Part shown: piece by piece, positions 8,968 through 42,455 of the stretch
How the letters are laid out: each line of letters opens with the position of its first letter
How positions within the stretch are numbered: the first letter of the stretch is position 1
DNA from: Cyanobacteriota bacterium
GTDB taxonomy: Bacteria; Cyanobacteriota; Vampirovibrionia; JBFMGH01
Direction: 5' to 3'
Assembly (NCBI GenBank): GCA_040752795.1
Contig: JBFMGH010000608.1
Location: 110,325 to 174,324 of the forward strand
DNA length: 64,000 nucleotides
Program-made: the position numbers and the translations under genes
The notes under the pieces: model-generated
The model's database searches: none
Seen by the model: the letters and a program-made list of their open reading frames with translations, nothing else
What the model was told of the DNA's origin: nothing

Positions 8968-9109
8968 ATATAACTCCTTTAAATTTATGCATAATACATA
9001 AGACTTCTTTCAGAGCTAAATTCAATATAAAATTTTGCATATAAGCTTAAAAATTAATTATATTCAGAAATAATTGGTAAAAATATTATAAAAAAGTGAA
9101 CGTAGCTAT

Positions 9110-9559: not shown

Positions 9560-9851
9560 TTAGATTCCTCCTTAAGCGTTATATTAAGAGCTTTGATGAT
9601 TATAACCAATTATATTTTTTTCCTCAACGAAAAATTTAAAAATTTTTAAGTGAGAGGTTTTGAGGTTTTAAAAAAAATATTTGTGTTTTAGTTCCTGAAT
9701 TCTTTGATAATAAGATCATTTTTGTGCTTTAAAGTTCCTGCAATTTAACAAAAAAATATTTTAAAAAAGATAATTAGTATTAATTTGTATTCAATTTAGC
9801 TCTTTAGTAACTGAAAACGGTATTCTTGCAAAGCTTTATGAGACAAGAGAG

Positions 9852-11196: not shown

Positions 11197-12036
11197 ATGT
11201 ATAAGATAGCCAGTGCAAAGAATTTAACAGGCGACCTTTATGAATTTAAGATAGAAGCTCCTCATATTACAAGACATGGTAAGCCGGGTCAATTTATAAT
11301 ACTAAGAGTTGATGCAAAAGGCGAAAGAATACCATTGACTATTGCGGACATAGATAAGAAAAACGGCCTTTTAACTATTGTTTTTATGGCAGTTGGCTTT
11401 ACAACTAAAAAACTTGCTGCTCTGAAAACAGGTGAATCAATACAGGATATCGTTGGCCCATTAGGTGTTGCTACTGAAACAACAGAAAACTTTGGAACAG
11501 TTGCTGTTGTGGCAGGCGGGTACGGAGCGGCCCCGGCATATTTAATTGCTCAATCATATAAAGAAAATGGTAATAAAGTTTATATGATATTTGGTGCAAG
11601 AAATGAAGAACTGCTTTTCTGGCAGGATAAAATGAAAAATGCCTGTGATGAACTCTATATAACTACTGATGATGGCTCTTTTGGTATTAAGGGGCTTGTT
11701 ACTGATCCATTAAAGATGATTATTGAAAGAGAAAAAGTAGATCACGTAATGTGCATTGGCCCTATTCCTATGATGAGAGCTGTGGCCAGGCTTACTAAAG
11801 AGTATGATATTTATACTATTGCCAGTATGAACCCATTAATGGTTGATGGTACTGGCATGTGTGGCGGATGCAGGGTTAGTGTTGATGGTGAAATCAAGTT
11901 TGCCTGTGTTGATGGGCCTGATTTTGATGCCCATAAGGTTGACTTTGATGAGCTTATTAATAGAAACAAAGTTTATGATCACTATACCTGTAAGCTGGAA
12001 TCAAAGGTTAATGAACTGGAAGCTCAAAAGTTTTAA
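11197..12036 (+). CDS. PyrK/NfnA/SudB-family FAD/NAD(P)-binding oxidoreductase subunit with a C-terminal 2Fe-2S cluster motif
   Basis: RHGKPGQFIILRV, a GG.GAAP dinucleotide-binding motif, and C-terminal MCGGCRVSVDGEIKFACVDGPDF. Confidence 0.7.
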   Translation: MYKIASAKNLTGDLYEFKIEAPHITRHGKPGQFIILRVDAKGERIPLTIADIDKKNGLLTIVFMAVGFTTKKLAALKTGESIQDIVGPLGVATETTENFGTVAVVAGGYGAAPAYLIAQSYKENGNKVYMIFGARNEELLFWQDKMKNACDELYITTDDGSFGIKGLVTDPLKMIIEREKVDHVMCIGPIPMMRAVARLTKEYDIYTIASMNPLMVDGTGMCGGCRVSVDGEIKFACVDGPDFDAHKVDFDELINRNKVYDHYTCKLESKVNELEAQKF

Positions 12037-13208
12037 AATGTTAGTGTAATCTTGTCAGAGTTTTTTCTTGCAAATTGAAGATTATTAAGTAACATTTTTT
12101 CCAGTTCTTCAAATAATATAACTTCATCAAATAATTGATAATGTTTAGCAAAGCATTTCAAAGGGTAAATAAGAGCATTTTCTGCATCGGGAATACCCTC
12201 AGGAATGCTTTTAGCTTTAATCATATTCTTGAAACATTGCAAGCTACTACTTATGTGCTCACTATCATGTTTTAAAATCTGTTCTTTGCGTGGATACCAT
12301 ACTTTTTCAAAGGTGTCAGATTCTGTGAACCCACCGGCTTTCTGGCCTATTTTAAATATTGCTTTTTGTATGTCTTTTACAAAAGCAGCTTGAATAACGT
12401 CAGATGGGTCAAGAGCTTCTTTTATAGTCATTGCCTTTAGTAGTGCATTTTGACGGTCCAGTGCAAAAATCATCGCAATACTATTTGTTGCTATATTAAC
12501 CATTGCTTTCTCGAATTCAACCCTGTGAGGGTTGGTGTGTATTGAAAAAACGTAGTTCTTAGATGTTAGTAGTTCAACAGCCTGGCCAAATAAAGAGAAT
12601 TTTGGTAGAGCCAGTTTTATTAACCCTTTTTTATGCGGGTAATAAAGGTTGTTTTCTCTATAGGCACCCTGCATAATGCTCGCTCTGACTACTTTGCTGC
12701 AAATATTATTTATTATTTGCTCTGATAAATCTAACTCAACAAGATTCTTGTTAAGATTATAGATTATTTCATCGTATATTATACCGTTAGATGCCAGAAT
12801 AATTGCAGGAAAATAAAACCTGCTCAAATTAGTATATCCTATAAGCAGCTTTTTAGAGTTTAAATATGACACAAGATTTGTTAACTCATTTACCATATCA
12901 TTAATAAAGCAATATGGTGGAGTGCATAATATTGCAGAAGGTAGGATCTTTTTATGAGCTGCATCTAAAATGCCATTTACAAAACAATCTGCAATACCTA
13001 TTTCTTTTGTATTTCCATCTATTTTAATATTTAATGTAGGGTTTTTAGAGAAAATACCCGCTGTAACACCGTCTTTTCTGCAAATCAGAAGATCAACAGT
13101 GCAATGATAATAAAATGAAACCCCAAGTGATGTTACAGGGTAGATTCCTATAGTTGGCTGTATTATATCTTTAACGCCTGAAACGTTTGTTTGAGGTTTA
13201 GTTTCCAT
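12033..13208 (-). CDS. Hypothetical protein, 391 aa
   Basis: Long clean ORF overlapping the upstream methyltransferase gene by 11 nt (operon). No confident domain. Confidence 0.5.
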   Translation of the reverse strand: METKPQTNVSGVKDIIQPTIGIYPVTSLGVSFYYHCTVDLLICRKDGVTAGIFSKNPTLNIKIDGNTKEIGIADCFVNGILDAAHKKILPSAILCTPPYCFINDMVNELTNLVSYLNSKKLLIGYTNLSRFYFPAIILASNGIIYDEIIYNLNKNLVELDLSEQIINNICSKVVRASIMQGAYRENNLYYPHKKGLIKLALPKFSLFGQAVELLTSKNYVFSIHTNPHRVEFEKAMVNIATNSIAMIFALDRQNALLKAMTIKEALDPSDVIQAAFVKDIQKAIFKIGQKAGGFTESDTFEKVWYPRKEQILKHDSEHISSSLQCFKNMIKAKSIPEGIPDAENALIYPLKCFAKHYQLFDEVILFEELEKMLLNNLQFARKNSDKITLTF

Positions 13209-18473: not shown

Positions 18474-20438
18474 TTAGAGTCTTCTCATATCTTTATCAGC
18501 TATTATAAAAAGATTTATAAGGTCATCCAGCTCTTTAGCTCTTCTCTGATAATAACTTATATCATCTTCTAATTGTCTGATAAGTTGTTTCTGTTCTTCA
18601 ATTTTATTAATATTATCTTTCATATATTTTTGCAGTTTAGCTTGTGCGCCCTGAGCATCTGAAAGAACTTCAGACATTGAAATGCCCATTGCTTCCATAG
18701 TTTGCCTGATTATTTGAGCTCCGGTTTGTCTTGTAACACCTGGAGGCAAAGTAGAAACCAGTTTTATAAGAGTTTCAACATTTGAATTAAATAATTCTAC
18801 CCTTCTACGAGTGGCCCTTTCATCTCTTCTAGGATCAAAATCTCTATCTCTTGACATATCATTGTACGACCTGTCATCATATCTGTGATAATCTCTTGAT
18901 GAATCGTGATAAAGCCTATCATCATATCTGTGATAGTCGCGAGATGATTCCTGATAAGATCTATCATCATACCTGAGAGAATCTCTATGTGGTTCATGGT
19001 AAGATCTGTCATCGTGCTTGTTGTAACCTCTATCATCAGGTCTATAAGGTTCAGGATGTGTTTCACGATAGCCTCTATCATCAGGTCTATAAGGTTCAGA
19101 ATGTGTTTCACGATAGCCTCTATCATCAGGTCTATAAGGTTCAGGGTGTGTTTCACGATAGCCCCTATCATCAGGTCTATAAGGTTCAGGGTGTGTTTCA
19201 CGAGGCCTGTAGTGATCAGACTGATCTTGCGCATAATGTTTACGAGGTTCAGGTTGAGGTTCGTGATAGCTTCTATTGTCAGGTTTGTAAGGTTCAGGTT
19301 TAACAGGTGGAGATGTTATATGAGGATCCCTCTCTTGTGATACATTATAGTCTTTAGGCTGATATTGATCAAGATCTAAAGGAGACTTTGAAGGTTCTTG
19401 AGGTTTAGCATACTGTGGCTCAACTCCCGGGTGAATAGAGTCAAGATCAATAGTTCTTTGAGGTTCCTGTCTCCTAGGAATCTCTTCCCATTGCTGATTT
19501 TGATTCATTTGTTGTTGTGGGTATCCTATTTGAACTTCTTGTGGTTCATAACTATCGTAAGTCGACATTTCTTGCTTATGCGGTTGATATGGCTCAGGTT
19601 CATACTGCTCTGGTTCTAATTGTTGATTGTAATCATCCTCCTGATAGGAGTATTGATTATAACCAATATTTGCTTGAGCATGAGAAGCATGGGCAGGTTG
19701 TGGAGTATATTCCTGGTATTCCTGAGTCTCGTAAGGTTGATATTCTGTAAACTCCTGGGGATAATCTTCTGTTTCAGGAGGATCCACCTCTTCAAGTGCT
19801 GGCTGTTGTTGCATCTCTTGATAAGCTCTCCCCTGAGAATATCCTAATTGAGGGGGCTGATATTCTGGTACATCAGAATCATCTTCAAATTGTTGAATAT
19901 CATCACTAAAGTCATCATAAGATTGTTGATTGTAATTAAAATCATCTTGAGCCTGTTGCTCATATCTTTGAGGGTCAAAGCTTTGTGGATCATAAGATTG
20001 CTGATCATATGACGGCTGATCATATGATTGTTCATTGTAATCAATAGACATAGGGGTTTCTTCTGACATCATTTGTTCTTCAATTGGTGCAAAACTTCCG
20101 TATTGGGGAGTATCCGTAGTAGTAGTCATACCGTCTAGGTCAGGTAATTCTGAAGTCATTTCGGGCTGAAATTCAGTGGGTTCAAGAGGACCAGGTTCTT
20201 CATCATAGTGCATTTCTTGAGATCCAAAATCCATATGTGAAATAGTTTCCAGACCATGATTAGCATCAGGTTGATGAGCAGCATAAGGATCAACAGGTAC
20301 TTCTTGATAAGTTGATTGAGCAGCTGCTTGACCTGTTTGAACTTCAGGGTCTTGGGTTTTTAAAGCCTGAATGATTTTCTTACCTAATCCATCTGGAAGT
20401 TTACTTTGTCTTTTAGAATCCACTAATATGCTCTCCAA
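18474..20438 (-). CDS. Large intrinsically disordered Q/Y/D/P/E-rich repeat protein (654 aa) with a short structured C-terminal domain
   Basis: About 540 aa of low complexity (SYDQPSYDQQSYDPQSFDPQRYEQQ). Four or five tandem copies of ETHPEPYRPDDRGYR, then RYDDRSY..SSRDYH repeats. Ends with a ~110-aa non-repetitive, helical-looking domain (VELFNSNVETLIKLVSTLPPGVTRQTGAQIIRQTMEAMG...). Confidence 0.6.
   Translation of the reverse strand: MESILVDSKRQSKLPDGLGKKIIQALKTQDPEVQTGQAAAQSTYQEVPVDPYAAHQPDANHGLETISHMDFGSQEMHYDEEPGPLEPTEFQPEMTSELPDLDGMTTTTDTPQYGSFAPIEEQMMSEETPMSIDYNEQSYDQPSYDQQSYDPQSFDPQRYEQQAQDDFNYNQQSYDDFSDDIQQFEDDSDVPEYQPPQLGYSQGRAYQEMQQQPALEEVDPPETEDYPQEFTEYQPYETQEYQEYTPQPAHASHAQANIGYNQYSYQEDDYNQQLEPEQYEPEPYQPHKQEMSTYDSYEPQEVQIGYPQQQMNQNQQWEEIPRRQEPQRTIDLDSIHPGVEPQYAKPQEPSKSPLDLDQYQPKDYNVSQERDPHITSPPVKPEPYKPDNRSYHEPQPEPRKHYAQDQSDHYRPRETHPEPYRPDDRGYRETHPEPYRPDDRGYRETHSEPYRPDDRGYRETHPEPYRPDDRGYNKHDDRSYHEPHRDSLRYDDRSYQESSRDYHRYDDRLYHDSSRDYHRYDDRSYNDMSRDRDFDPRRDERATRRRVELFNSNVETLIKLVSTLPPGVTRQTGAQIIRQTMEAMGISMSEVLSDAQGAQAKLQKYMKDNINKIEEQKQLIRQLEDDISYYQRRAKELDDLINLFIIADKDMRRL
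18860..19210. repeat. Tandem 45-bp (15-codon) repeat array inside the disordered-protein gene
   Basis: Near-identical 45-bp units cctctatcatcaggtctataaggttcagRRtgtgtttcacgatag begin at 19027, 19072, 19117 and 19162. More diverged 45-bp units lie at 18862-19020. Confidence 0.8.
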
Positions 20439-25907: not shown

Positions 25908-28900
25908 ATGGTTAGCATCTTTTTAAAATGGTTTAAATCTTTATTCATTTTATGTTTATTAGTAATGACTGCAAATAATTTTACTTATGCTTATGACAAC
26001 CTTTCTAAAGAAGAAAAAACGATTTTTTACTCTTCTAATATTCTTGGAGAATGCTCTTTTTTAATCTCAGATGTATTGTCTAATAGCCAGATCATGGGCG
26101 TTGCAAATTTAGATGCTAAACTGGAGTATGTTAAAAAGCAACTTACACTTGAACCTCCTCTTGTTGAAGATTTAAAAGTTTCTAAAAAAACATTACAAAC
26201 ACTAAAAAAATTTATTGAAGAAGTTAATGAATCCTATAATGAAAAGACATTTAAACTAAAAAAACTAGAACAGGCTAATAAAACTTTTGGCGATTATTCT
26301 GTAGAGCTAAGAGAAGACATTAATAAGTTGTATGGCCCTAAGTATACCTGGCTGTTTGATACAGGTTTCCTTGTTTCTTTTACCAAAGCTTCAATGATAT
26401 CAGATTATAAGAATAAACTTGTATTGTTAGAGTACAAATTTCTGCTTGATTATGTGCCCTATAATATGCCTACCAGTGTAATAAGCTCGTTATCATCTAT
26501 TGCTACTGTTAAAGATGAGGAATTAACACAAAATCAGGTAGAGATACTAAAAGAAGCATCTGATAATATGATATCTTACTTTACAAGCCCCGAGACATAT
26601 TCGCCACCGGCTACTTTAAGAGATCTTGTGGGGAAATGGGAAGGAAGACTGGCCCCTCCTAATGGAGATTATCATAAAGCAAATATTTCAATTACCCCAG
26701 ATATGAGTGCTATATTAAATGTTGAAGGCATGTTTAAAGATATGCCAGTGAATGACTTAACAGTAACTCAGAGTTTGGTTAGCTTTAATATTAAACCCTT
26801 TGCTGATGAACAGCTTATAATAAGATTTTCTGGAAGAATAGTCGATGATGTATTATCGGGCGAAGCTATTGATGTATCTGGTAAAAAAGGTTTATGGCAA
26901 TTTTTGAAAACCCCACAGGTTGATCTAAGTGAATTAGTTAATGCTGAAATAAAAACAGAACCAACAGCCCTTGATAAATTATCAGGTGTTTGGAAAGGTA
27001 AAATACTCGAACAAGATGGAGCAATATCTAATTTAACCCTTCGATTCAATATAGTTGATGATAGTGTGATGTTTGTTGAAAATCCTAACCATAAAAAGAC
27101 TCTTAAGCTTAATTCTGTAGCTGCTAATGATAAGGCAGTCAGGTTTAGCATTTCTCCTGATAATGGTGATATCAATATTACATTTATGGGTGAAATTAAG
27201 GGTAGAATATTAGAAGGGAATGCAATAGGAACAGATGGCAATAAGGCCTATTGGAAAATTATTAAAGTTGAAGATAAACTTACTAAGCCTCAATTAAAGA
27301 GTGATGCTGGTTTTTTTTTCTTGGATCATTTATGTGATCCTATTGTAGACAATTCCTTTATTGAAGGCTTCACGTTAGTTTCTAAAAATATAATTGTGCC
27401 GCCACCTAAAATTAATGAAGGCAAATATAAAGGCCATCTTATTTTTGAAGATGGCTCTAGGGCAGGGCTTGTTCTTGTTTTGTCTAATAAGCAGTCCAAG
27501 ATGTACCTTTTTAGCAAGGAGGATAACTCAAAAATATCTTTAGATATTGATTTAATGAATATTACAGATAGAGAAATAACAATAGATACAACAATAGATG
27601 GCAATAAAGATACTCTGGTTAAGTTTAAAGGCAAAGTTTTTGGAGGATATATTTATGGCGATGCTGTAAATATTGCTGGTGAAAATCTTAAATGGGAACT
27701 TATGGCTGTTGATAAAGCAGATACATTTTTAAGCAATGTTAATTCTTCAAATGTAAAAAGAATAAAAGGCTTATGGAATGGAATGGTGACCTTCTCTAAC
27801 TTGTTTGAGGTGCCTGTAAAACTTGTTATTTCAGATGATGAAACAAAAATGTACTTCGATGACGCAAAAATCTTACTAATATCAGATATTATTCTTGATG
27901 GGACATCGGTTAGCTTCGTTGCAAAGAATGAAGCTGATCCCATGCAAACCATAACCTTTAATGGCAACCTAGAAGAACAGAGTATAACTGGAAAAATAAC
28001 TACAGTTAATGGTCTGGGGCTTGATGTGGTGCTTTCTATGTCTGAAAAATATCAAGAAGATCCATTGAAAGGTATCTGGGCAGGGAGAATTATGCTAGAT
28101 AATGCTTCTGCTGATATTGTATTTGACTTTGTAGAAGATAAAAAGAAAGTTTATATTGATGACTCTAGAGCAGAATCAGGTAGAGTAGAACTATTAATAA
28201 GTAATTTAGTTAAAGATTCTAAAGGAATTAAATTTACAGCTAATACATCTAAAAGCCCTTCAAAAATTGAATTTGTTGGTACTTTTGATAGAGAACTTCT
28301 CAAAGGATCTGCAAAAAATCAGATACAGGGATCTAATAAACTTAATTGGGAAACTTCTAAATCTAATCTAAGTAAGTATGATCCCGAAAGTATTGAGATA
28401 GTATTACATTCTGAACCTGAAAATGCAGGGTATAAAAAAACGTTTTCTTTTCTTGATGAAATGGATAACCTTAATGACAGCAAAATAGATAATGAAACTA
28501 ATGATAAAGTTACTGAAAAAGAAGATAAAACAACTTCAACTATAGATAAAAAACCAGATGAAACTGAAATAAAAGAAAATAAAACAGATGAAATCCTTTC
28601 TCAAAAAGTGATAAATGCAGATGAGATAGATAAAACCAAACAAGATAAAAAAGATAAAGATGTTGATATTGATGAAAGTTCTTCAGAAAAAGAGATTACG
28701 AAAAAAAATGATAAAGAAAGTAAGATAGATAAAAAGATAAAAAAAGATAAATCTAAAAAATCAAGTGAAAATATCAATAAAGAGGAAAATAACAGATCTT
28801 CAGATAAGAAATCAAAGAAAACTAAAAAAACTAAATCTAAAAAAGAAAAACCTGACAAAGTAAAATCAGAAAAAGATACTAAAACAAAGGATAAAAGTAA

Positions 28901-29807
28901 ATCTGAAAAAGAAGATAAGTCTAAACAGTCTGAAGAAGAGAAAATGTCTGATAATAAAAAACCTTCGGATAAGAAATCAAAGAAAACTAAGAAAACTGAA
29001 TCTAAAAAAGAAAAACCTGACGAAATAAAGTCAGAAAAAGATACTAAAACAAAAGATAAAAATAAATCGGTAAAGGATGATCAATCTAAACAGCCTAAAG
29101 AAGAGAAAATATCTGATGAAGATCTGTTTGAAAAATCTAAAATTAAAAAGGCCAGAGAAAATTTAAATTCTGAAACACCTAAAACAGATAAATTAAAAGA
29201 AAAGAAAAAGGATAAGAAAAAAAGAAGATGGCCTTTTGGACGCAAGGACAAAGATAAAACACAAAAAAATAAGCAAAAAGAAGTCGATGTAATACAAGAA
29301 AATCCTGTTAAAGTTGAAGATAATACTGAAGTAATACAGGAAGAGACCTCTGATAAAGATGATAATAAAGAGGAAAATATAAAAAACCCTGAAGAAGATA
29401 AAAGCATTGAATCCAAAGATTTACAGATAAATACTGAAGATAAGCAAATAGAAGAATCTGATGAGATACAAGAATCTAAACAAGAAGATATGCAAGTAGC
29501 TATTGGAGATGAGCTTATTGGTAAATGGGTAGGAGAATTATTTAATCCTCAGGGTGATAAAGGGGAGATATTAATAGATCTTAAGAAATCTGATAGCTAT
29601 ATCTATGTTAATAAAGAAGGTGAAAAAGTTCCGTTTAAATTACTTGACTTAAAAATAAATGGTAAGAATATATATTTTAAAATAAAGCCATCACCTGATT
29701 CAGACTATGGCATAATATTTGATGGGTCTTTAATACAGGGAGTATTGTCCGGAACAGCAACTGACCCCACAGGCAACAAAGGCAAATGGCATGCGCAAAA
29801 GCCCTGA
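25908..29807 (+). CDS. Giant secreted modular protein (1299 aa): signal peptide, six ~95-aa GxWxG...GxKxxW modules, and a K/D/E-rich low-complexity spacer
   Basis: N-terminal signal (MVSIFLKWFKSLFILCLLVMTANNFTYA). Module starts: LVGKWEGRL, LSGVWKGKI, IKGLWNGMV, LKGIWAGRI, LIGKWVGEL, plus one degenerate. Each module ends G.A.D..G.K..W. The ~350-aa spacer is rich in K, D and E. Confidence 0.6.
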   Translation: MVSIFLKWFKSLFILCLLVMTANNFTYAYDNLSKEEKTIFYSSNILGECSFLISDVLSNSQIMGVANLDAKLEYVKKQLTLEPPLVEDLKVSKKTLQTLKKFIEEVNESYNEKTFKLKKLEQANKTFGDYSVELREDINKLYGPKYTWLFDTGFLVSFTKASMISDYKNKLVLLEYKFLLDYVPYNMPTSVISSLSSIATVKDEELTQNQVEILKEASDNMISYFTSPETYSPPATLRDLVGKWEGRLAPPNGDYHKANISITPDMSAILNVEGMFKDMPVNDLTVTQSLVSFNIKPFADEQLIIRFSGRIVDDVLSGEAIDVSGKKGLWQFLKTPQVDLSELVNAEIKTEPTALDKLSGVWKGKILEQDGAISNLTLRFNIVDDSVMFVENPNHKKTLKLNSVAANDKAVRFSISPDNGDINITFMGEIKGRILEGNAIGTDGNKAYWKIIKVEDKLTKPQLKSDAGFFFLDHLCDPIVDNSFIEGFTLVSKNIIVPPPKINEGKYKGHLIFEDGSRAGLVLVLSNKQSKMYLFSKEDNSKISLDIDLMNITDREITIDTTIDGNKDTLVKFKGKVFGGYIYGDAVNIAGENLKWELMAVDKADTFLSNVNSSNVKRIKGLWNGMVTFSNLFEVPVKLVISDDETKMYFDDAKILLISDIILDGTSVSFVAKNEADPMQTITFNGNLEEQSITGKITTVNGLGLDVVLSMSEKYQEDPLKGIWAGRIMLDNASADIVFDFVEDKKKVYIDDSRAESGRVELLISNLVKDSKGIKFTANTSKSPSKIEFVGTFDRELLKGSAKNQIQGSNKLNWETSKSNLSKYDPESIEIVLHSEPENAGYKKTFSFLDEMDNLNDSKIDNETNDKVTEKEDKTTSTIDKKPDETEIKENKTDEILSQKVINADEIDKTKQDKKDKDVDIDESSSEKEITKKNDKESKIDKKIKKDKSKKSSENINKEENNRSSDKKSKKTKKTKSKKEKPDKVKSEKDTKTKDKSKSEKEDKSKQSEEEKMSDNKKPSDKKSKKTKKTESKKEKPDEIKSEKDTKTKDKNKSVKDDQSKQPKEEKISDEDLFEKSKIKKARENLNSETPKTDKLKEKKKDKKKRRWPFGRKDKDKTQKNKQKEVDVIQENPVKVEDNTEVIQEETSDKDDNKEENIKNPEEDKSIESKDLQINTEDKQIEESDEIQESKQEDMQVAIGDELIGKWVGELFNPQGDKGEILIDLKKSDSYIYVNKEGEKVPFKLLDLKINGKNIYFKIKPSPDSDYGIIFDGSLIQGVLSGTATDPTGNKGKWHAQKP
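28804..29125. repeat. ~165-bp (55-codon) tandem duplication within the K/D/E-rich spacer of the giant protein
   Basis: Two near-identical DNA units encode SDKKSKKTKKTKSKKEKPDKVKSEKDTKTKDKSKSEKEDKSKQSEEEKMSD and SDKKSKKTKKTESKKEKPDEIKSEKDTKTKDKNKSVKDDQSKQPKEEKISD. Confidence 0.75.
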
Positions 29808-29844: not shown

Positions 29845-32064
29845 TTATTTGCGTTTGTGCTTTTTAGACTTGGTTTTTTTAACACTTTTAGTTTGAATGG
29901 CAGTACCAACTTGCTGTCGTTTAACATTTACAACATCACTAATGTCATATAATGATTTAATTATTGAATCAAAATGCTGTTTACCGCTTACTTCCACAGA
30001 CATTTCTATAACAGCAGTATTATCCTGCCTTGTTTTTACTCCTGCGTAAGTAACGTTAGTATTTAAATCCGCTATCTTTCCTAAAATGTCTTTAAATACT
30101 CCAATCCTGTCTATTACTTCAACAATAAAGCTTACAGGGTAATTTTTTGCTTCTGAAATCTGGCTTTTTTCTGACCATGTAATATTCATAACTCTTTCAG
30201 GAGCTACTTTAGATAAAGATTTACAATCTTCTCTATGAACACTTATACCTCTTGATCTTGTTATAACACCTACTATATTCTCGCCTGGCAAAGGGAAACA
30301 GCATTTAGAAATATGATAAAGCATGCCTTGTAGTCCATCTATGTTTTTTTCGGATTTAGAGGCTTTGCCAGATGCATATCTTGGTTTGTTTCTTAGAACT
30401 TCCAGCGATTCTTTGTCTTCTTTTTTAATTTTATTAGTAACTTTAGGGGTATTGATTTCACCATATCCTATAGCCGCATAAAGATCATCCAGGGCGTTGT
30501 AATTCAGTTGATTAGCAATTTCAAGTAATTTCCCTGATTTACTGACATCTTCGAGTTTCTGCTTGCTTAGTTCTGCTTCAAGAAGCATTTTACCCTGTGA
30601 GATATGCTCTTCACGACGATTTTTCTTGAACCAGCTTCTTATTCTGCCTTTGGCACTGTTAGTAGCGACAAGGTTTAACCAATCTAGCCTGGGGTGCGAA
30701 TTTTTACTTGTTAATATTGAGACAATATCCCCACTCTGAAGTGGAGTATCTATTGGTACCATTTTGTTATTAACAAGAGCTCCTACGCAGGTATGGCCTA
30801 CTTCCGTATGAACTCTGTAGGCAAAGTCTAAAGGGATAGCGCCTTTAGGTAAATCGTATACATCTCCTTTAGGGCTGAATACAAATACCTCATCTCTGAA
30901 AAGGTCTAGCTTTACGGAATCAACGTATTCTTGTGCATCTTTTACATCTTGTTGAAATTCAACCAGCTTTCGTAGCCATACAAATTTTTTATCCAGCTCA
31001 TTATTAGCTGCAATACTACCCTTCTCTTTGTATTTCCAGTGAGCAGCAATACCGTATTCGGCAATTTGATGCATTTCTTGTGTTCTTATTTGTACTTCTA
31101 GTGGTTTGCCATTTGATCCCATAACTGTTGTATGTAGTGATCTATATAGATTACTTTTGGGCATGGCTATGTAGTCTTTAAATCTTCCAGGTATTGGTTT
31201 GAATGCTGAGTGGATTACTCCTAAAACTTCATAGCATTCTTTTTCGCTGTCTACAATAACTCTTACTGCACTAATATCATATAACTCCTGGAATGTTTTA
31301 TTTTGAAATGTAATTTTATTATAAATACTAAAATAATTTTTCGCTCTACCATATACAGTGGCATTAATGCTATGTTTTATAAGTAGCTCCTGAAGTTTAT
31401 CTAGAGAGTTCTTAATAGCCTCTTCACGGTCTTTCTTGCTTTGAGAAACAAGTTGTGCAATTTCAAGATATTCTTTAGGGTGAAGATAGTTCAGGCACAG
31501 GTCATCCATTTCTGATTTAAGTTTCCACATACCTAACCTGTTTGCAAGAGGAGAGAATATTTCCATTGTTTCTTTTGCGATTCTTTTTTGTTTGTCTGGT
31601 GTCATGTGATTAAGAGTTCTTATATTGTGAAGTCTATCGGCTAGCTTTAGCAATATAACTCTTATATCACTCGCCATAGCAAGAAACATTTTCCTGAAAT
31701 TTTCTGCCTGTCTTTGTTCTTTAGATCTAAATTCGAATTTACTAAGTTTTGTTACCCCATTAACGAGGTTTGCGATTGTTTCACCAAACTCTTTTTCAAG
31801 AATTTCAGGTGTTACATCGGTGTCTTCTACGGTATCATGTAGCAAAGCAGCTGCAATAGTTTCTGTATCTGATTGAAACTCTGTTAATATACAAGCAACT
31901 TCGACTGGATGAGTTATATATGGTTCTTCACTGGCCCTGTATTGACCATCATGATGTTTGGCAGCAAAATCAAAAGCTCTTTTAATTGTGTCTATATCTT
32001 CTGTTAATCTATTTTGTTCTGCTAGAATATTTTCTAAACTTTTAAATAAAGTACTGTTTTCCAT
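29845..32064 (-). CDS. rel: Bifunctional (p)ppGpp synthetase/hydrolase (RelA/SpoT homolog: HD, synthetase, TGS and ACT domains)
   Basis: HD motif (HDTVEDT), synthetase motif (DISAVRVIV...RFKDYIAMPKSNLYRSLHTTV), TGS domain and C-terminal ACT. Confidence 0.9.
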   Translation of the reverse strand: MENSTLFKSLENILAEQNRLTEDIDTIKRAFDFAAKHHDGQYRASEEPYITHPVEVACILTEFQSDTETIAAALLHDTVEDTDVTPEILEKEFGETIANLVNGVTKLSKFEFRSKEQRQAENFRKMFLAMASDIRVILLKLADRLHNIRTLNHMTPDKQKRIAKETMEIFSPLANRLGMWKLKSEMDDLCLNYLHPKEYLEIAQLVSQSKKDREEAIKNSLDKLQELLIKHSINATVYGRAKNYFSIYNKITFQNKTFQELYDISAVRVIVDSEKECYEVLGVIHSAFKPIPGRFKDYIAMPKSNLYRSLHTTVMGSNGKPLEVQIRTQEMHQIAEYGIAAHWKYKEKGSIAANNELDKKFVWLRKLVEFQQDVKDAQEYVDSVKLDLFRDEVFVFSPKGDVYDLPKGAIPLDFAYRVHTEVGHTCVGALVNNKMVPIDTPLQSGDIVSILTSKNSHPRLDWLNLVATNSAKGRIRSWFKKNRREEHISQGKMLLEAELSKQKLEDVSKSGKLLEIANQLNYNALDDLYAAIGYGEINTPKVTNKIKKEDKESLEVLRNKPRYASGKASKSEKNIDGLQGMLYHISKCCFPLPGENIVGVITRSRGISVHREDCKSLSKVAPERVMNITWSEKSQISEAKNYPVSFIVEVIDRIGVFKDILGKIADLNTNVTYAGVKTRQDNTAVIEMSVEVSGKQHFDSIIKSLYDISDVVNVKRQQVGTAIQTKSVKKTKSKKHKRK

Positions 32065-32137
32065 ATAAATTATTTATTCTATTATTATTTATGTAATTTA
32101 TTCATAAATTGTACATTATTTCTTCAGGTAAAAGAAG

Positions 32138-32440
32138 TTGTCTGCAAAAATTACTAAAACTTTAAAGGGTATAAAATTTAGTATTAGAGTTGTACCTAAA
32201 TCTTCAAAGAATCAACTTTCTTTGAATGAAGATGGTACGATAAAACTAAAAATAAATGCTCCTCCAGTAGATGGGAAGGCTAATGATGCATGTATTAAGT
32301 TTTTATCTAACATTTTAGAAGTGAACAAATCTGATATTTCTATTACTTCAGGTTTAAAGTCAAAAACAAAAATCTTAGAAGTGTTAGGAGATTCTAACGT
32401 TCTTTATGATAAGATTCTTACTTCCCTGGAAAAAGAGTAA
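32138..32440 (+). CDS. DUF167/YggU-family (UPF0235) protein
   Basis: ...RVVPKSSKNQL....DGTIKLKINAPPVDGKANDACIKFLSNIL is the characteristic YggU core. TTG start. Confidence 0.65.
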   Translation: MSAKITKTLKGIKFSIRVVPKSSKNQLSLNEDGTIKLKINAPPVDGKANDACIKFLSNILEVNKSDISITSGLKSKTKILEVLGDSNVLYDKILTSLEKE

Positions 32441-32447
32441 TAAAGCC

Positions 32448-33323
32448 TTAAGGCATAATAGTTGATCTATCCATTAGAGCACTAAGAAGATTATCAGCAA
32501 GATTTATGCTTGAACCAGAAAGGTTAGCACTTCTTAAGTCAGTTTGTTCAACATTTGCTCTGTCCAGTTCAGCATTTTTAAGGTTGGCATGTTTCAGGTC
32601 AGCTTTAAGAAGATTTGCTTCTTTTAGATTAGCGTTTTCAAGGTTGCAATTTCTCATAATAGTCTTTTCAAGGTTACTTTTGTTGAGGTTAGCATTACTT
32701 AAATTGCCTTCAGATAAATCGCACCAGAATAAGGTAGCGCTTTCTAGATTGCACTTAGATAAATTAGAAAACCTTAGATCGGCTTTTTCAAGATTTACCC
32801 CTTGTAAATTTGCACCGGATAAATCTGCATTGCTAATATCTGTCCAGTAAAGGTTTGACTCAGTCAAGATTGAATCTTTTAGTATGGAATTTGTAAGGAA
32901 AGCCTTGTTTAGAGTGCTATTAGTTAATTCTACAGATGTTAAATTGCTATTTTCAAGATTTGTTCTTGTTAGTTTTACTGAATTAAGCTTACTTCCAGTT
33001 AGGTCAGAGTTAATTATTTCTGCCCAATCTAGATCAGAACCACTTAAATCAGCATTGCAGATCTTAGCATTGTTAATCATACAACCTTTAAGGTTGGCAT
33101 TAGTTAAATTGGCTTCATTTAATATAGCACTGACAAGCTTTGTATTTACCATTGTGATATTTGATAGATTAGCTTTGCTAAAATCAATTCCAGGTAAAGC
33201 CATACCTGTTAAATCTGTTCCACTTAGATCTATTTCATCTTCCGGATTATCTTTTCGATATTCGTTAAACTTTTCAGGGTCAGCGGTTAATAAATCTATT
33301 AGCTCTGTTTTTGTTAAACTCAT
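32448..33323 (-). CDS. Pentapeptide-repeat protein
   Basis: Long runs of A(D/N)L..A.L..A.L pentads. I set the start at the ATG at 33321-33323, which has an AAGGAG RBS 8 nt upstream; that RBS overlaps the trxB stop codon. Confidence 0.75.
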   Translation of the reverse strand: MSLTKTELIDLLTADPEKFNEYRKDNPEDEIDLSGTDLTGMALPGIDFSKANLSNITMVNTKLVSAILNEANLTNANLKGCMINNAKICNADLSGSDLDWAEIINSDLTGSKLNSVKLTRTNLENSNLTSVELTNSTLNKAFLTNSILKDSILTESNLYWTDISNADLSGANLQGVNLEKADLRFSNLSKCNLESATLFWCDLSEGNLSNANLNKSNLEKTIMRNCNLENANLKEANLLKADLKHANLKNAELDRANVEQTDLRSANLSGSSINLADNLLSALMDRSTIMP

Positions 33324-33333
33324 ATATGACTCC

Positions 33334-34287
33334 TTATGCAGGTATAGAATTTTCTTCAAATACCTCATCCAAGTATTTTATAGCATCTGTAGCAGCTATT
33401 GCACCATCAGAAGCAGATACTACTAATTGTCTGAGATTGGTTTTACGAACGTCCCCAGCCGCATAGACTCCAGCAACATTTGTTTTCATCGTTTCATCTG
33501 TTAAAATATAACCTGTTTCATCAAGATTTATTTGACCTTTGAATAAACCAGTATTAGGATTAGCACCAATATAAGGGAATACACCATCTGTTTTATATTC
33601 TTCTATTTTTCCAGTTTTAACGTTTTTAACCATTATGTCTGTTACTGCTCTATCGTTACCTTTGATTTCTTCGATAACAGAGTTCCAGATAAATTTAATT
33701 TTAGGATGATTAAGAACTTTTTCCTGATATGCTTTACTGGCTCTGAGTTCATCTCTCCTGTGTACTATAGTTACAGAGCTGGCATATCGTGTTAAATATA
33801 AGCTTTCTTCAATAGCAGAATTCCCTCCTCCTGCTACAGTGATATTTTTTTCTTTGAAAAAAGCCCCATCGCATACTGCACAATAGCTAACACCTCTTCC
33901 AATAAATTCTTTTTCTCCGGGTACGCCAAGCTTTCTTGGATTAGCACCGGTAGCGATAAGTATAGATTTTGCTCTATAAGTACCTTCTAATGTTTCTATA
34001 ATCTTTACTTGTTTGGTTAAGTCTACTTTTTGTATTTCCTGAAATTGTTTAATTTCAACATTTAAGTTTTCAAGCTGTTCTCTGAATTTCTCTATAAGTT
34101 CAAATCCAGATATTTTTAGGTATCCAGGGTAGTTCTCTATTGTTTCTGTCCAGTTTAATTGTCCACCAAGTGTTGCAGTATCGAGAATAAAGCAGTCAAT
34201 CATGCCTCTAGCTGCATAAATAGCCGCAGATACACCTGCTGGTCCGCCACCTAGTATTATAAAATCTCTAATTCTTGACTCTTCCAT
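33334..34287 (-). CDS. trxB: Thioredoxin-disulfide reductase
   Basis: GGGPAG FAD motif, CAVC redox-active disulfide, GGGNSA NADPH motif. Confidence 0.9.
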   Translation of the reverse strand: MEESRIRDFIILGGGPAGVSAAIYAARGMIDCFILDTATLGGQLNWTETIENYPGYLKISGFELIEKFREQLENLNVEIKQFQEIQKVDLTKQVKIIETLEGTYRAKSILIATGANPRKLGVPGEKEFIGRGVSYCAVCDGAFFKEKNITVAGGGNSAIEESLYLTRYASSVTIVHRRDELRASKAYQEKVLNHPKIKFIWNSVIEEIKGNDRAVTDIMVKNVKTGKIEEYKTDGVFPYIGANPNTGLFKGQINLDETGYILTDETMKTNVAGVYAAGDVRKTNLRQLVVSASDGAIAATDAIKYLDEVFEENSIPA

Positions 34288-34356
34288 GTTATATCCTCTA
34301 TTTATTATTCATTTGAGTATACTACCAAGTTGCATGTATTTAAATAACTATTTTCT

Positions 34357-35022
34357 TTAGTGGTTAGATTTTGAAGGTGATGTGTTAAATATTGATGGGG
34401 TAGGACCAGAAATTTTTGTTGCGTTTAAATTGAAAAATGCCTGCTCAACACGAATTAATGTTTTTTTAAGAAAAAACTGAATCTCCATTACACTTACTCC
34501 GCTGAAATTATCACCATCTACAGTAATTGTAATCTTTTCAAATTGAGAAAACTTTCTATCAGGTGTTGTGTTAACAGTAAAAGTTGCCATATTATCTTTA
34601 ACTTCGTTGACAGTAATAAATGTTTCAGTCTGAGTATCTGGATTGGCTAACCGGATTTTTTTCTCTACTTGTTGGAGAATCCATATGTCACTGGTTTTTC
34701 TTTTAAATCTATAAGGAGCATTAGTGCTTAATAATGTACCTGATACTTGCCATGTGCCATACAATGCTGGAGGTAAATATTGAGCTTCAACAACATGGGC
34801 TTGAAAAGTAGGCTTATTAGGGTTGGAATACTCTGGCTTTGAATTTTCTTCGACCTCAGGTGGGTCATAAATTTTGGGGTTTGTATCTAATGCTGGTTCT
34901 TGGGCTAAAACCACAGGAATAACTATCAATAATAAAATTGATAAAAAGACGTTAACCAGTAACCGTAAAATCATCAAAATTGCCACTATATTGCTTTTTA
35001 AAAGTTTCAACTTGTGTAACAT
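34357..35022 (-). CDS. Hypothetical secreted or membrane-anchored protein
   Basis: N-terminal hydrophobic segment, then a Pro-rich linker and a ~150-aa domain. Start is uncertain: an alternative ATG at 34974 would reduce the overlap with acyP. Confidence 0.45.
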   Translation of the reverse strand: MLHKLKLLKSNIVAILMILRLLVNVFLSILLLIVIPVVLAQEPALDTNPKIYDPPEVEENSKPEYSNPNKPTFQAHVVEAQYLPPALYGTWQVSGTLLSTNAPYRFKRKTSDIWILQQVEKKIRLANPDTQTETFITVNEVKDNMATFTVNTTPDRKFSQFEKITITVDGDNFSGVSVMEIQFFLKKTLIRVEQAFFNLNATKISGPTPSIFNTSPSKSNH

Positions 35023-35248
35023 ATGCCATAGGAGGCCCCTGGTGACACCATGATAACATTTGATCTACTAATTCTGCTTCACCTTCAAAGAGGGCTTCTA
35101 CCCTGCCATCATAAAGATTTTTAACCCAGCCTTTTAGCCCGAGTTTTTTGGCTTGTATAACAGTGCTATAACGATAATTTACGCCCTGAACCCTTCCTGA
35201 TACATAAACATGTAGACCAACTAGAGCCACGGATATTCCTCCTGACAT
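34952..35248 (-). CDS. acyP: Acylphosphatase
   Basis: V.GRVQGV.YR motif and G.V.N...G.VE....G. Confidence 0.8.
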   Translation of the reverse strand: MSGGISVALVGLHVYVSGRVQGVNYRYSTVIQAKKLGLKGWVKNLYDGRVEALFEGEAELVDQMLSWCHQGPPMAYVTQVETFKKQYSGNFDDFTVTG

Positions 35249-35258
35249 GAATTATTGT

Positions 35259-35807
35259 TTAATTGTCTTCTAACTCACCATCAAACAACTTTTCTTCGAA
35301 GTCATCATCTTCATAATTAAGATGATTACTATAGTCAGTATCGAAATCTTCCGGTAAATTGTGACTATCTGGCCATACAGTAAATTTATCAAACTTAGCC
35401 TGTGAAAGATTAAAGCTGGAAGATAATTCGGCATCGCTTAAATCAGCTTCTCTTAGATCAGCTCCATTAAGATTAGCTTCTGTAAAATCTGACTCAGTAA
35501 GGATTGCGCCGGTTAAGAGTATGCCACTCAGGTTAGCATTGTTGAAACAACAGAACTGCATTGAAGTGCTTGTTAGATTGGCAGCACTTAAATTAGCTTC
35601 TGTAAAATCCGCATTATCTAAATTACAGTCTCTAAGATCAGAACCGTTTAGATCAGTATAGCTTAAATCAATGCCGTTTAAGTTTAGACCGCTTAAATCC
35701 ATTTCAGATAAATCTAAGTCTGTTATATTATTTTCTTCCTTTAGCTGATTAAAGGCTTCAACTTCTTCTGTAAGTAATAAATTTGTTAGTTCATCGTTTA
35801 AACTCAT
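35259..35807 (-). CDS. Acidic pentapeptide-repeat protein
   Basis: Repeats of (D/N)L(S/N)(G/E)(A/I)(D/N)L. D/E-rich termini. Confidence 0.7.
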   Translation of the reverse strand: MSLNDELTNLLLTEEVEAFNQLKEENNITDLDLSEMDLSGLNLNGIDLSYTDLNGSDLRDCNLDNADFTEANLSAANLTSTSMQFCCFNNANLSGILLTGAILTESDFTEANLNGADLREADLSDAELSSSFNLSQAKFDKFTVWPDSHNLPEDFDTDYSNHLNYEDDDFEEKLFDGELEDN

Positions 35808-35830
35808 AAGGTAACTCCTAAAACATATTG

Positions 35831-36463
35831 TTAGTCTAACAAGTTCATTTGAATGGCAGATAGAACGGCTTGTGTTCTATTTGAAACATTTAATTTTTTA
35901 AAGATACTATTAAGATGTGTTTTAACAGTAACTTCTCTAACAACTAGTTTTTCTGCAATTTCTTGGTTGTTAGCACCCTGAGCAACGAGTTTCAAAACTT
36001 CTTTCTCTCTAGAAGTCAGAGGTGCTACAGGCTCTTCAGCGGAAAAAGGAATATTTACAGTGCTTGCTTGCTGGTTTTTTTCTCTCCACTTTGAACGTCT
36101 TAGCAGAGCTTCTATTCTGGCGAGCAGATTTGGTAAGACAAAAGGCTTAACTATATAGTCATCTGCTCCAAATTTTAAACCATATACTTGTTTTTGGTCA
36201 CTATCTAATGCCGTTATCATTATTATTGGTATATATTCGTAATGAGAGTCTTTTCTGATGGCTTTTAATACTTCCCAGCCATCCATATTAGGCATCATTA
36301 CATCTAGCAATATTAAATCAAACTTTTGTTCCTTATCGCTTAGAACTCTTAAACCCTGTAAACCATCGTTGGCTACAACTACTTCGTAGCCATACATAGG
36401 GAGAACATCTCTTAAATATTTAGGGTTATCATCTACAAGTAAAATTTTAGCTATTGAAGACAT
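35831..36463 (-). CDS. Two-component response regulator, NarL/LuxR family (REC + HTH_LuxR); no histidine kinase adjacent
   Basis: ILLVDDNP...DLILLDVMMP.MDGWEVL (REC domain) and LTSREKEVLKLVAQGANNQEIAEKLVVREVTVKTHLNSIFKKL (LuxR HTH). Confidence 0.85.
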   Translation of the reverse strand: MSSIAKILLVDDNPKYLRDVLPMYGYEVVVANDGLQGLRVLSDKEQKFDLILLDVMMPNMDGWEVLKAIRKDSHYEYIPIIMITALDSDQKQVYGLKFGADDYIVKPFVLPNLLARIEALLRRSKWREKNQQASTVNIPFSAEEPVAPLTSREKEVLKLVAQGANNQEIAEKLVVREVTVKTHLNSIFKKLNVSNRTQAVLSAIQMNLLD

Positions 36464-36599
36464 GAGCTAATTTCATTTCCCTCACTACCATGAATTATAA
36501 TATCAGATTTATTAGGTTTTTGTATGATTAAATTTTTGGAATTTTCTATATTATTATGTAAAAGTAGTTTTTAATTTAGATTTAATTTCATAGGTTCTT

Positions 36600-37637
36600 G
36601 TGATGAAGAAATTTAAGGTTGATAAGATTATATTAAATTGGTTTCGTAATACGTTGATTTTAATCTTTATAATGATTATTCTTTCTCCTGCTGCTTTTGC
36701 TGATAAGAATGTTCTGGCTGCTGGTATTGTTTTTTACAATCAAGGCAAATATGATCAAGCATTATCATATTTGTCAAGAGCTGTTAAAGATGACCCTAAT
36801 GATATTAAATCAATGTATTACTTTGCTAATACACTTGTAAAGACATATAACCTTGGATATGCAGAAAAATATTATAGAAAGATAATTGAAATACAGCCTT
36901 ATTCAGAAATAGCAGAATTGTCAAAACAGGCTCTTGTGGATATATCAGATTATAAAGCCAATATAAGAACACCTCATGAGAGCTTGCTTGTTAAAGACAA
37001 GCAGTTGTATAGTTCTGTCAATTCTTATATTCAGGAAATCATAGATAATGGAGTAATAGTTCACTGGCAAAAAGATAAAATGCCCCTTAATGTCTATATT
37101 TCTCCTTCAACGTATAAAGAATACGAAGCTTTTGCCTGGGATGCTTTTGAAGACTGGGAAACTTCTTTAGGTGGTTTAATATCTTTTAATAAGGTTGATA
37201 AAGAGGAAAATGCACACCTGAAAATAATATGGGATAAAAACTTTTCAAATGAAATTGAATATGATTTAAATGGTTATACATATCCTGTGATTGATGGAAA
37301 TGAACTAACAAAATATAATATATGTATTGTAGAACGTGGTATGGATGGGAAAATATTATTACCAACTACTTTATATACCTATGTCTTGCATCAGATAGGG
37401 CATGCTCTTGGTGTAAGTTCTCATAGTAAGAATGAAAAAGATATAATGTTTGTTAGTGGTAATGAAGGTAAGCTAACTAGAAGAGATGTATCTACTCTTC
37501 ATGTTCTTTATAGCTTAAAACCTGATATTTCAAACTTTAATGACACCAGAGTTGAAACAGTACAACAACAGCCTCAAAACACTGAAAGCCAGGTTGTGCC
37601 TGAAGAAAATAATAAATCAGAGGCCGGGAATCAGTAG
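36600..37637 (+). CDS. TPR-repeat plus matrixin-like (zincin) domain protein with a variant HQxxHxxGxxxH motif
   Basis: N-terminal signal and TPR units. The C-terminal domain carries LHQIGHALGVSSHS where matrixins have HExxHxxGxxH (Q replaces the catalytic E). Confidence 0.5.
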   Translation: MMKKFKVDKIILNWFRNTLILIFIMIILSPAAFADKNVLAAGIVFYNQGKYDQALSYLSRAVKDDPNDIKSMYYFANTLVKTYNLGYAEKYYRKIIEIQPYSEIAELSKQALVDISDYKANIRTPHESLLVKDKQLYSSVNSYIQEIIDNGVIVHWQKDKMPLNVYISPSTYKEYEAFAWDAFEDWETSLGGLISFNKVDKEENAHLKIIWDKNFSNEIEYDLNGYTYPVIDGNELTKYNICIVERGMDGKILLPTTLYTYVLHQIGHALGVSSHSKNEKDIMFVSGNEGKLTRRDVSTLHVLYSLKPDISNFNDTRVETVQQQPQNTESQVVPEENNKSEAGNQ

Positions 37638-41924: not shown

Positions 41925-42455
41925 ATGAAAAAAGTTTTGTTGATAATTATTCCGTTGTTGTTAATTATTATAATTTACTTTTCTTATATTTTATTGAATA
42001 ATACCCCCAAAAAATCTGAAGTAAACCTTGGTGAATACGTATACGCTGAAGACAACTCAGTTAATGATGTCAATGAAATGCTAAAAACATCAATTAATGG
42101 AGATAGACCAGTAATATTAATGTTTTATTCTCAGTGGTGTGGCTCATGCAGAAAAATAAGACCAGCATATGAAACGGTTAGAGATGAATATTCAGATAAA
42201 GCTGTTTTTATAGATGTTGATGTAGATGAAAATCCTGATTTAGCGGGCCAATTTAAAGTATTTTTTGTACCATCTTTATTTGCATTAAATACTGACACTA
42301 AAGAAGTATATGGCTTGCCTGCACATAAAATGGCTACTGTAACGTCATTCAAATCAGTTTTAGATGACCTTTTTGATACTTTTACTACAATAAAAACTGG
42401 CAAGCAAAAAGATAAAGAGCCAGAGGCAGAACCTGAAAAAAATTCAGAGAACTAA
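41925..42455 (+). CDS. Membrane-anchored thioredoxin-family protein (WCGSC active site)
   Basis: N-terminal TM helix, then a thioredoxin fold VILMFYSQWCGSCRKIRPAYE. Confidence 0.7.
   Translation: MKKVLLIIIPLLLIIIIYFSYILLNNTPKKSEVNLGEYVYAEDNSVNDVNEMLKTSINGDRPVILMFYSQWCGSCRKIRPAYETVRDEYSDKAVFIDVDVDENPDLAGQFKVFFVPSLFALNTDTKEVYGLPAHKMATVTSFKSVLDDLFDTFTTIKTGKQKDKEPEAEPEKNSEN

Follow-up and report, generated by a model that had tools for sequence, protein, structure and literature searches.

A thioredoxin reductase gene paired with a pentapeptide-repeat gene in a modular, lineage-specific cluster of Vampirovibrionia

The window analysed here, a 64-kb stretch of the contig JBFMGH010000608.1 to which all positions below refer, carries on its minus strand six consecutive genes from 36463 down to 32448, which encode an orphan response regulator (RR), a very acidic pentapeptide-repeat protein (PRP1), an acylphosphatase (acyP), an exported protein of an unannotated family (Hyp), thioredoxin reductase (trxB), and a second pentapeptide-repeat protein (PRP2). 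The explanation we consider best, to which an even chance of being right is given, is that of a lineage-specific, same-strand cluster of three separable modules with nested transcription units, in which trxB and PRP2 form a coupled pair and PRP2 serves the thioredoxin system as an adaptor or is one of its clients. The first module would consist of the NarL/LuxR-type RR and the extremely acidic PRP1, the second of acyP translationally overlapped with the lipocalin-like barrel protein Hyp, and the third of a canonical TrxB with PRP2 following 10 nucleotides (nt) behind. Transcription would most likely start from an extended −10 element upstream of RR and read through all six genes, because no terminator is seen between them, and a second promoter-like box upstream of trxB would probably drive the trxB-PRP2 bicistron independently. 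What the analysis shows are the genes present, their spacing, how they are conserved, and the folds predicted for them; the promoters, the coupling of translation, and any physical link between TrxB and PRP2 are inferences.

A preliminary description of the same DNA had proposed that the six genes form one redox-responsive module under the orphan RR. This reading was over-reaching: a joint function of the cluster as an RR-controlled redox module is not supported, and the modules are separable rather than being parts of one proven redox operon. The accompanying remark that a translational coupling of trxB to a pentapeptide-repeat gene is not known to be described held good, as no such pair was found in full-text literature searches, and the acyP-barrel pair was likewise not found described in the literature searched. 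Taken singly, the genes are ordinary representatives of known families, and no new mechanism is demonstrated. The host is most likely an uncultured Vampirovibrionia (Melainabacteria) lineage, which fits the cyanobacterial flavour of its pentapeptide-repeat proteins, and it is probably non-photosynthetic. Among named proteins, the closest TrxB shares 69% identity and carries a Vampirovibrionia annotation; of the species-representative genomes, those of Candidatus Gastranaerophilales come nearest, at 54-55%.

The trxB-PRP2 junction and its conservation

The evidence for a coupled pair begins at the junction of the two genes. The trxB stop codon TAA, 10 nt ahead of the PRP2 start codon, opens the sequence TAAGGAG, so that the ribosome-binding site of PRP2 overlaps the end of trxB, as had been recognised in the preliminary description. 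The start of PRP2 is ATG 33323, giving a protein of 291 amino acids (aa) rather than the 292 first reported; a longer open reading frame (ORF) from 33368 is without a ribosome-binding site. A stop codon inside the downstream Shine-Dalgarno sequence is the usual signature of translational coupling. With the trxB stop codon inside its ribosome-binding site, PRP2 is probably translated in a coupled manner and in amounts proportional to TrxB.

The conservation of this adjacency, which had been set as a test of the pairing, was followed by comparing the neighbourhoods of TrxB relatives, with checks by tblastn and profile searches (WIN denotes the window's own cluster and L0xx the locus labels of relatives' contigs). 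The adjacency is not unique to one genome. It is found in nine lineages (WIN/L059, L060, L061, L062/63, L064/65/71, L066, L068, L070, and L072) with gaps of 10-26 nt, at identities down to 58% for TrxB and 45% for PRP2, and the stop codon lies within the Shine-Dalgarno sequence (TAAGGAG, TAGGAG, or TAAGGAA) in eight of the nine. When the search was started from PRP2 instead, the full-length relatives of at least 45% identity were all located immediately downstream of trxB, whereas weaker pentapeptide-repeat matches (39% or less) were not. A word-index homologue search with PRP2 was flooded with generic long pentapeptide-repeat proteins and gave no orthologue.

The cluster as a whole has a narrower distribution. 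An identical copy is present on a 9.7-kb Logan contig (L059), and the full cluster occurs in five other lineages (L060, L061, L062/63, L064/65/71, and L068) whose TrxB proteins are 63-76% identical to that of the window, one of them without RR. Orthologues are 73-85% (RR), 55-67% (PRP1), and 75-84% (acyP) identical to the window proteins. In L061, PRP2 (8965-9838) and RuvB (520-1594) are each split into two ORFs on the ENA contig, for which assembly frameshift errors are a likelier cause than pseudogenes. Outside the narrow clade, at more distant loci, the six genes do not travel together. In L066 (TrxB 58%), the region upstream of trxB is unrelated (DUF2721), yet the order trxB-PRP2-DUF167-relA is kept. 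On the 2.9-kb contig L070 (TrxB 65%, PRP2 46%), a GIY-YIG-like ORF and a 330-nt spacer are followed by trxB and, after 12 nt, PRP2, with no DUF167 gene within 500 nt downstream of PRP2. The 2-kb contig L072 contains Hyp-trxB-PRP2. Collectively, the six-gene cluster is a juxtaposition of modules. Of its adjacencies, trxB-PRP2 and acyP-Hyp(-trxB) are those that persist when gene order changes.

Gene starts and transcription signals

The six genes, their order, and their short gaps are as initially described, and scans against Pfam and NCBIfam confirmed the labels obtained from the ORF listing and the reading of the strand (Table 1). The spans first given for RR, PRP1, trxB, and PRP2 were reproduced, whereas those of the two middle genes had to be shortened. 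The start of acyP is most likely GTG 35230, which lies 6 nt past an AGGAGG sequence, and all relatives have the same start point behind the same AGGAGG; the ATG at 35248 chosen before is probably too far upstream. For Hyp, the gene caller and the relatives agree on ATG 34974 in place of 35022, which reduces the overlap with acyP from 71 to 23 nt. The gaps are then 23 nt (RR-PRP1), 28 nt (PRP1-acyP; 10 nt if ATG 35248 is taken), −23 nt (acyP-Hyp), 69 nt (Hyp-trxB), and 10 nt (trxB-PRP2).

Table 1. Genes and signals of the six-gene cluster, in positions of the 64-kb window
Feature	Position	Strand	Basis or remark
RR, response regulator with REC and LuxR/GerE helix-turn-helix domains, 210 aa	35831..36463	-	PF00072 Response_reg 89 bits, PF00196 GerE 71 bits
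PRP1, pentapeptide-repeat protein, very acidic, C-terminal tail rich in D/E, 182 aa	35259..35807	-	PF00805 107.7 bits
acyP, acylphosphatase, 92 aa from GTG 35230	34952..35230	-	PF00708 93 bits
Hyp, exported 8-stranded up-and-down beta-barrel (predicted), 205 aa	34357..34974	-	unannotated family
trxB, canonical low-Mr NADPH thioredoxin-disulfide reductase, 317 aa	33334..34287	-	TIGR01292 388.2 bits
PRP2, pentapeptide-repeat protein, 291 aa	32448..33323	-	PF00805 193.5 bits
Extended −10 promoter-like element TGATATTATAAT, consensus TnTGnTATcAT	36494..36505	-	upstream of the RR start codon by ~30-40 nt
Conserved box GTAGTATACT, containing the palindrome AGTATACT	34316..34325	-	candidate internal promoter/operator, ~30 nt upstream of the trxB ATG
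TAAGGAG, trxB stop codon embedded in the PRP2 Shine-Dalgarno sequence	33330..33336	-	PRP2 ATG at 33323

A pattern scan revealed no intrinsic-terminator-like site in any intergenic gap of the cluster. Three such sites on the minus strand all fall within coding sequence, and their counts are not clearly above those of shuffled sequences. An Rfam scan of 31800-36900 gave no riboswitch or leader and only a sub-threshold snoRNA match. Co-direction, short gaps, and gaps free of terminator-like sites are what a single operon should display, yet a promoter-like box stands in the 69-nt Hyp-trxB spacer. The co-transcription proposed in the preliminary description is compatible with the former features, but one indivisible operon is not supported, given the trxB box, the loss of RR in a relative, and the separability of the genes.

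Beyond the cluster, a DUF167 (YggU-like) gene (32138-32440, plus strand) converges with the end of PRP2 at 32448, the stop codons of the two genes being separated by 7 nt, and relA/spoT comes next after it. This convergence, which has no terminator-like hairpin, is kept in the relatives with gaps of −4 to 15 nt. With no such hairpin and only 7 nt between the stops, the transcripts of opposite strands should overlap.

Two elements could account for transcription of the cluster. When the regions upstream of RR from five lineages are aligned, the columns T-TG-TAT-AT are invariant, and the element TnTGnTATcAT is a likely promoter of the extended −10 type, as judged from its sequence. The second element lies in the Hyp-trxB spacer, in which the block TnGTAGTATACTC is kept in five lineages (WIN, L060, L061, L063, and L064), and its flanks diverge. 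The exact 10-mer GTAGTATACT occurs only once in the window. In L070, ATAGTATATAAT is found at a similar distance from the trxB ATG behind an unrelated upstream gene, and the same spacer contains TATAAT in L068 and TGATACAAT in L072. These observations suggest that the box serves trxB as a promoter of its own or, given the palindromic AGTATACT, possibly as an operator, and that trxB and PRP2 may form a separate transcription unit. The Hyp-trxB gaps of L067 and L069 are only 18-25 nt, too short for such an element, and the acyP-Hyp-trxB trio of these two is probably one unit.

A role of the palindrome AGTATACT as an operator of the RR was considered and is not preferred. It is present only once in the window, with no sign of a regulon, and since the box persists in the lineage that has lost the RR gene, we argue that it is not the site of the RR. 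This loss is seen in L064/65/71, where only the RR gene is missing, with a spacer of ~350 nt (L064 6150-6500), and PRP1-acyP-Hyp-trxB-PRP2 together with the trxB box are kept. The RR need not be part of the unit, as one lineage keeps the other five genes without it.

The same observations bear on the proposal of a single redox-responsive operon under the orphan RR, in which the pentapeptide-repeat proteins act as DNA mimics or regulators coupled to TrxB. The co-directional genes, the short gaps without terminators, the one conserved promoter upstream of RR, and the strongly electronegative character of PRP1 (net charge −36), as is typical of DNA mimics, are all in line with it. However, one lineage has deleted the RR and retained the five other genes with the trxB box, trxB has a conserved promoter-like box of its own, and the RR possesses neither a Cys nor a recognisable redox-sensing domain. 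Together with the properties of the two pentapeptide-repeat proteins given below, this makes such an operon quite unlikely. The redox-responsive module of the preliminary description finds no redox-sensing feature in the sequence, nor a CxxC motif in either pentapeptide-repeat protein.

The proteins of the three modules

Both pentapeptide-repeat proteins score far above the PF00805 cutoff of 20.2 bits. Of the 58 five-residue frames of PRP2, 52 have a hydrophobic residue at the central repeat position, and the predicted build comprises an N-terminal two-helix cap, ~50 uninterrupted pentapeptides in about 12 coils, and a helix at the C-terminus. The single-sequence AF2 model (pLDDT 87, pTM 0.81; one of five models confident) shows a strand every five residues, and its Foldseek matches 1-49 against the PDB consist entirely of pentapeptide-repeat proteins and synthetic solenoids derived from them, HetL ranking first. 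According to this model, PRP2 is a beta-helix that is right-handed and quadrilateral. The best solved natural relatives by sequence are HetL and Np275/276 for both proteins, and for PRP2 the matches to Qnr and MfpA are far weaker. PRP2 orthologues have a mean column identity of 72%; W100, W160, and W200 are invariant and take the same repeat position on the same face, and C201 and C226 are invariant at the inward-facing i−2 repeat position.

PRP2 thus resembles the cyanobacterial group 3 proteins (HetL/All3740, Np275-Np276, Alr5209, Rfr23, and CipG) in its uninterrupted A(D/N)LXX repeats, its N-terminal helical cap, its best natural sequence and structure matches, and the lack of an enzymatic motif. 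It differs from them in having no orthology to a characterised member and in its Vampirovibrionia host, which is probably non-photosynthetic. The HetL equivalog model NF047416 (cutoff 260 bits) gives 125.3 bits for PRP2 and 62.0 for PRP1, and PRP2 passes the Alr5209 model (130 against a cutoff of 125) solely via four partial repeat matches to this 113-position model.

The preliminary description had further pointed out that pentapeptide-repeat proteins are often DNA mimics or regulators of gyrase or transporters. PRP1 and PRP2 probably belong to the same beta-helix fold class as the DNA mimics Qnr, MfpA, and AlbG, and PRP1 (pI 4.05) is highly acidic like them, with PRP2 at a net charge of −13. 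Unlike these proteins, both remain far below the cutoffs of the Qnr model NF033086 (240 bits; PRP2 72.8, PRP1 36.7) and the MfpA model NF000349 (360 bits; PRP2 57.8, PRP1 35.1), so that the assignment failed at both models. Moreover, PRP2 is without a repeat-register break that could hold Qnr-type loops, and no gyrase, topoisomerase, or toxin genes are nearby. PRP2 is probably not a DNA mimic, and the low scores and the unbroken register also speak against the redox operon under the RR.

PRP2 is, by its predicted fold, a non-enzymatic beta-helix of cyanobacterial type, and it may bind proteins and act within the thioredoxin system, either as an adaptor or as a client. Two precedents are available for such a role. 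The cyanobacterial pentapeptide-repeat protein CipG scaffolds GlgC via exposed aromatic residues (PMC13506006), to which the three invariant Trp residues at one repeat position of PRP2 may be compared; W100, W160, and W200 may form a surface stripe as a contact, with their exposure being putative. The lumenal pentapeptide-repeat proteins TL15, TL17, and TL20.3 are putative thioredoxin targets, and TL15 has an internal disulfide (PMC3813922). In contrast to these, which are exported to the lumen, PRP1 and PRP2 show by eye no signal-peptide-like N-terminus; in the comparison with the TL proteins, their similarity to 3n90 is weak (E about 1e-6), and PRP2 shows no sign of a disulfide. A protein-protein relation of TrxB and PRP2 is favoured because their expression is probably coupled, because the pair persists through changes of context, and because of the precedents of CipG and the lumenal proteins. 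By sequence and by analogy, a functional link of TrxB and PRP2 is plausible.

TrxB itself is canonical, with 388.2 bits against the TIGR01292 cutoff of 343.45, and contains the CAVC active site (C136/C139; residues 136-139), GGGNSAIEE, and HRRDELR, which conforms to the HRRxxxR of low-Mr NADPH reductases. Unlike in usual trxB operons, partners such as trxA and ahpC are absent here. The only thioredoxin-fold gene seen in the window (41925-42455, plus strand; ~8 kb from trxB) encodes WCGSC and an N-terminal transmembrane helix, and its product is probably periplasm-facing. This gene is divergent from ruvB and syntenic in the relatives, some of which have two copies.

The RR has the domain pair of the NarL/FixJ family, REC and GerE, with D11-D12, D54, T84, and K106 intact by inspection, and its full length aligns to the structures of VraR and NarL. 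It shares with these the architecture and all the phospho-acceptor residues. It differs from them in that no cognate kinase was detected in the 64 kb and that its REC domain scores best against OmpR-family receivers (CpxR, RpaB, and PhoB), suggesting a domain-shuffled architecture. The earlier statement that no histidine kinase is nearby can be extended to the whole window: in 30 ORFs scanned across it, namely the immediate neighbours and 20 further ORFs of 176-1023 aa, with nearly all ORFs of at least 300 aa included, neither HisKA nor HATPase_c was detected, and the annotated flanks of the relatives contain no histidine kinase either. The RR is an orphan within 64 kb, because the scanned ORFs have no kinase domain. 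Two of the scanned ORFs, both on the minus strand, have no Pfam or NCBIfam match (12033-13208, 391 aa; 18474-20438, 654 aa).

For acyP, the score of 93 bits against the PF00708 cutoff of 22.5 is accompanied by the phosphate loop VSGRVQGVNYR and by GWVKN in the translation. The N-terminus of Hyp is signal-peptide-like (…VVLA/QEP) and is followed by a disordered linker and a predicted eight-stranded antiparallel up-and-down barrel. In the structure model, with a mean pLDDT of 79 and values mostly above 90 in the barrel, Hyp is a lipocalin/calycin-like 8-stranded barrel. No family matches Hyp, and its own family comprises 215 representative clusters without annotation. In the five contexts sampled outside the close clade, Hyp members adjoin acyP, trxB, or both in every case (5/5): both partners adjoin it in L067 and L069, acyP and Hyp overlap by 4 nt without trxB in L078/79 and L081, and Hyp is followed by trxB after 15 nt without acyP in L080. 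The pairing of acyP with the barrel gene, with overlaps of 4 or 23 nt, looks wider in conservation than the link of trxB to PRP2.

In L067 (3639-8948 of a 2.6-Mb contig), acyP-Hyp-trxB ends a same-strand string of a REC gene, a 125-aa ORF, a second REC gene, an MshEN/HD_5 gene, and a PilT-like ATPase gene, which acyP overlaps by 4 nt. Here acyP is thus found with receiver-domain genes for a second time. A 1299-aa protein encoded in the window at 25908-29807 (plus strand) also has a signal-peptide-like N-terminus, followed by a long K/E/D/S-rich low-complexity centre, and has no Pfam or NCBIfam match; several modules starting with G-x-W-x-G are visible by eye, and self-BLAST did not confirm internal repeats. 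All relatives have a family-less protein of 852-1250 aa at this position. A relationship between Hyp and the 1299-aa protein was rejected, as a profile search gave no similarity.

Acylphosphatases hydrolyse acyl phosphates, a class that takes in both acetyl phosphate, from which regulators without a kinase can receive their phosphate, and the aspartyl phosphate of a regulator. It is a speculative possibility that acyP could modulate the orphan RR by acyl-phosphate hydrolysis. Literature searches for acyP with a response regulator, or with trxB in an operon, returned nothing relevant. A reading with two functional pairs, in which PRP2 as a group 3 protein would be an adaptor, regulator, or substrate of the thioredoxin reductase system in a dedicated, translationally coupled unit with TrxB, and AcyP would act with the barrel and, in this clade, with the kinase-less RR via acyl-phosphate hydrolysis, appears unlikely.

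An origin of the pentapeptide-repeat and RR genes as horizontally acquired cargo of a mobile or defence island beside trxB was also considered. PRP2 has a very weak match to the Hailong HalA model of NCBIfam (16 bits versus a cutoff of 250), and the helix-turn-helix domain of the RR has weak matches to CARF-associated models. However, GC is ~33% throughout the window and flat across the region, PADLOC has no match for PRP1, PRP2, acyP, Hyp, or trxB and only weak helix-turn-helix and REC matches for the RR, no integrase, tRNA, or repeats are adjacent (the sole tRNA lies at 16807), and the synteny is stable and vertical. Such an island is effectively refuted and hardly credible.

Inherited gene order as an alternative

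The main rival of a modular cluster with a coupled trxB-PRP2 pair is inherited synteny. The six genes could be neighbours by descent only, that is, housekeeping and accessory genes of unrelated function on one strand in a small clade with little rearrangement, where tight spacing reflects a compact genome. This is a serious possibility, although we regard it as less likely than not, and it explains most of the conservation. The close clade is fully collinear over a ~17-kb region that runs through Trx, RuvB, YibE_F, DinG, TPR-peptidase, the cluster, DUF167, RelA, the large protein, Ham1, and UppS. Close-clade conservation is functionally uninformative because every flanking gene is equally syntenic, and the conservation of the whole cluster is no more than background synteny in the clade. 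The fragmentation of the cluster in more distant relatives also agrees with descent alone.

Further observations weigh, like this collinearity, against a functional TrxB-PRP2 pair within a modular cluster. At 58 species-representative trxB loci (55% identity or less), no pentapeptide-repeat, acyP, or Hyp gene was found within ~7 kb, and L067 and L069 (TrxB 59-60%) carry acyP-Hyp-trxB with gaps of 18-35 nt and without PRP2. The 58 loci come from a genome-collection scan with TrxB that did not pick up the window's own clade, and they serve as a negative control. The place of PRP2 is taken in Gastranaerophilales by a zinc-ADH-like gene 3 nt behind trxB, and across lineages the downstream gene varies (zinc-ADH-like, MptE-like, SurE, or a queuosine-synthesis gene), in line with descent only. 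From these trxB loci, which lack a pentapeptide-repeat gene, it follows that TrxB is not generally in need of such a protein. In L066, PRP2 is linked to DUF167 and relA as tightly as to trxB, and a separation of PRP2 from DUF167/relA is seen on one short contig only (L070). AT-rich DNA surrounds the promoter-like box, for which the register of a −10 element is ambiguous. At the protein level, neither PRP1 nor PRP2 has a CxxC motif, and a conserved Cys at the i−2 position is usual for such repeats; the predicted export of Hyp, versus the cytoplasmic location of AcyP and TrxB, argues against direct contact.

Inherited synteny is contradicted only by L066 and L070, in which trxB-PRP2 outlasts the rearrangement of the upstream region, with no DUF167 behind the L070 pair, and by the scattered Hyp homologues, which again adjoin acyP and/or trxB although their surroundings are otherwise unrelated. 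The stop codon kept within the Shine-Dalgarno sequence in most lineages is also a point against descent only.

The cluster would be ordinary if its pairs reflect inherited gene order only. Very few pentapeptide-repeat proteins have a known partner, and both pairs give testable hypotheses on these proteins and on the physiological role of bacterial acylphosphatases, in Vampirovibrionia, a lineage with almost no experimental genetics. If true, a pentapeptide-repeat protein in a non-photosynthetic relative of cyanobacteria would gain a partner, and a bacterial acylphosphatase would gain a role in signalling.

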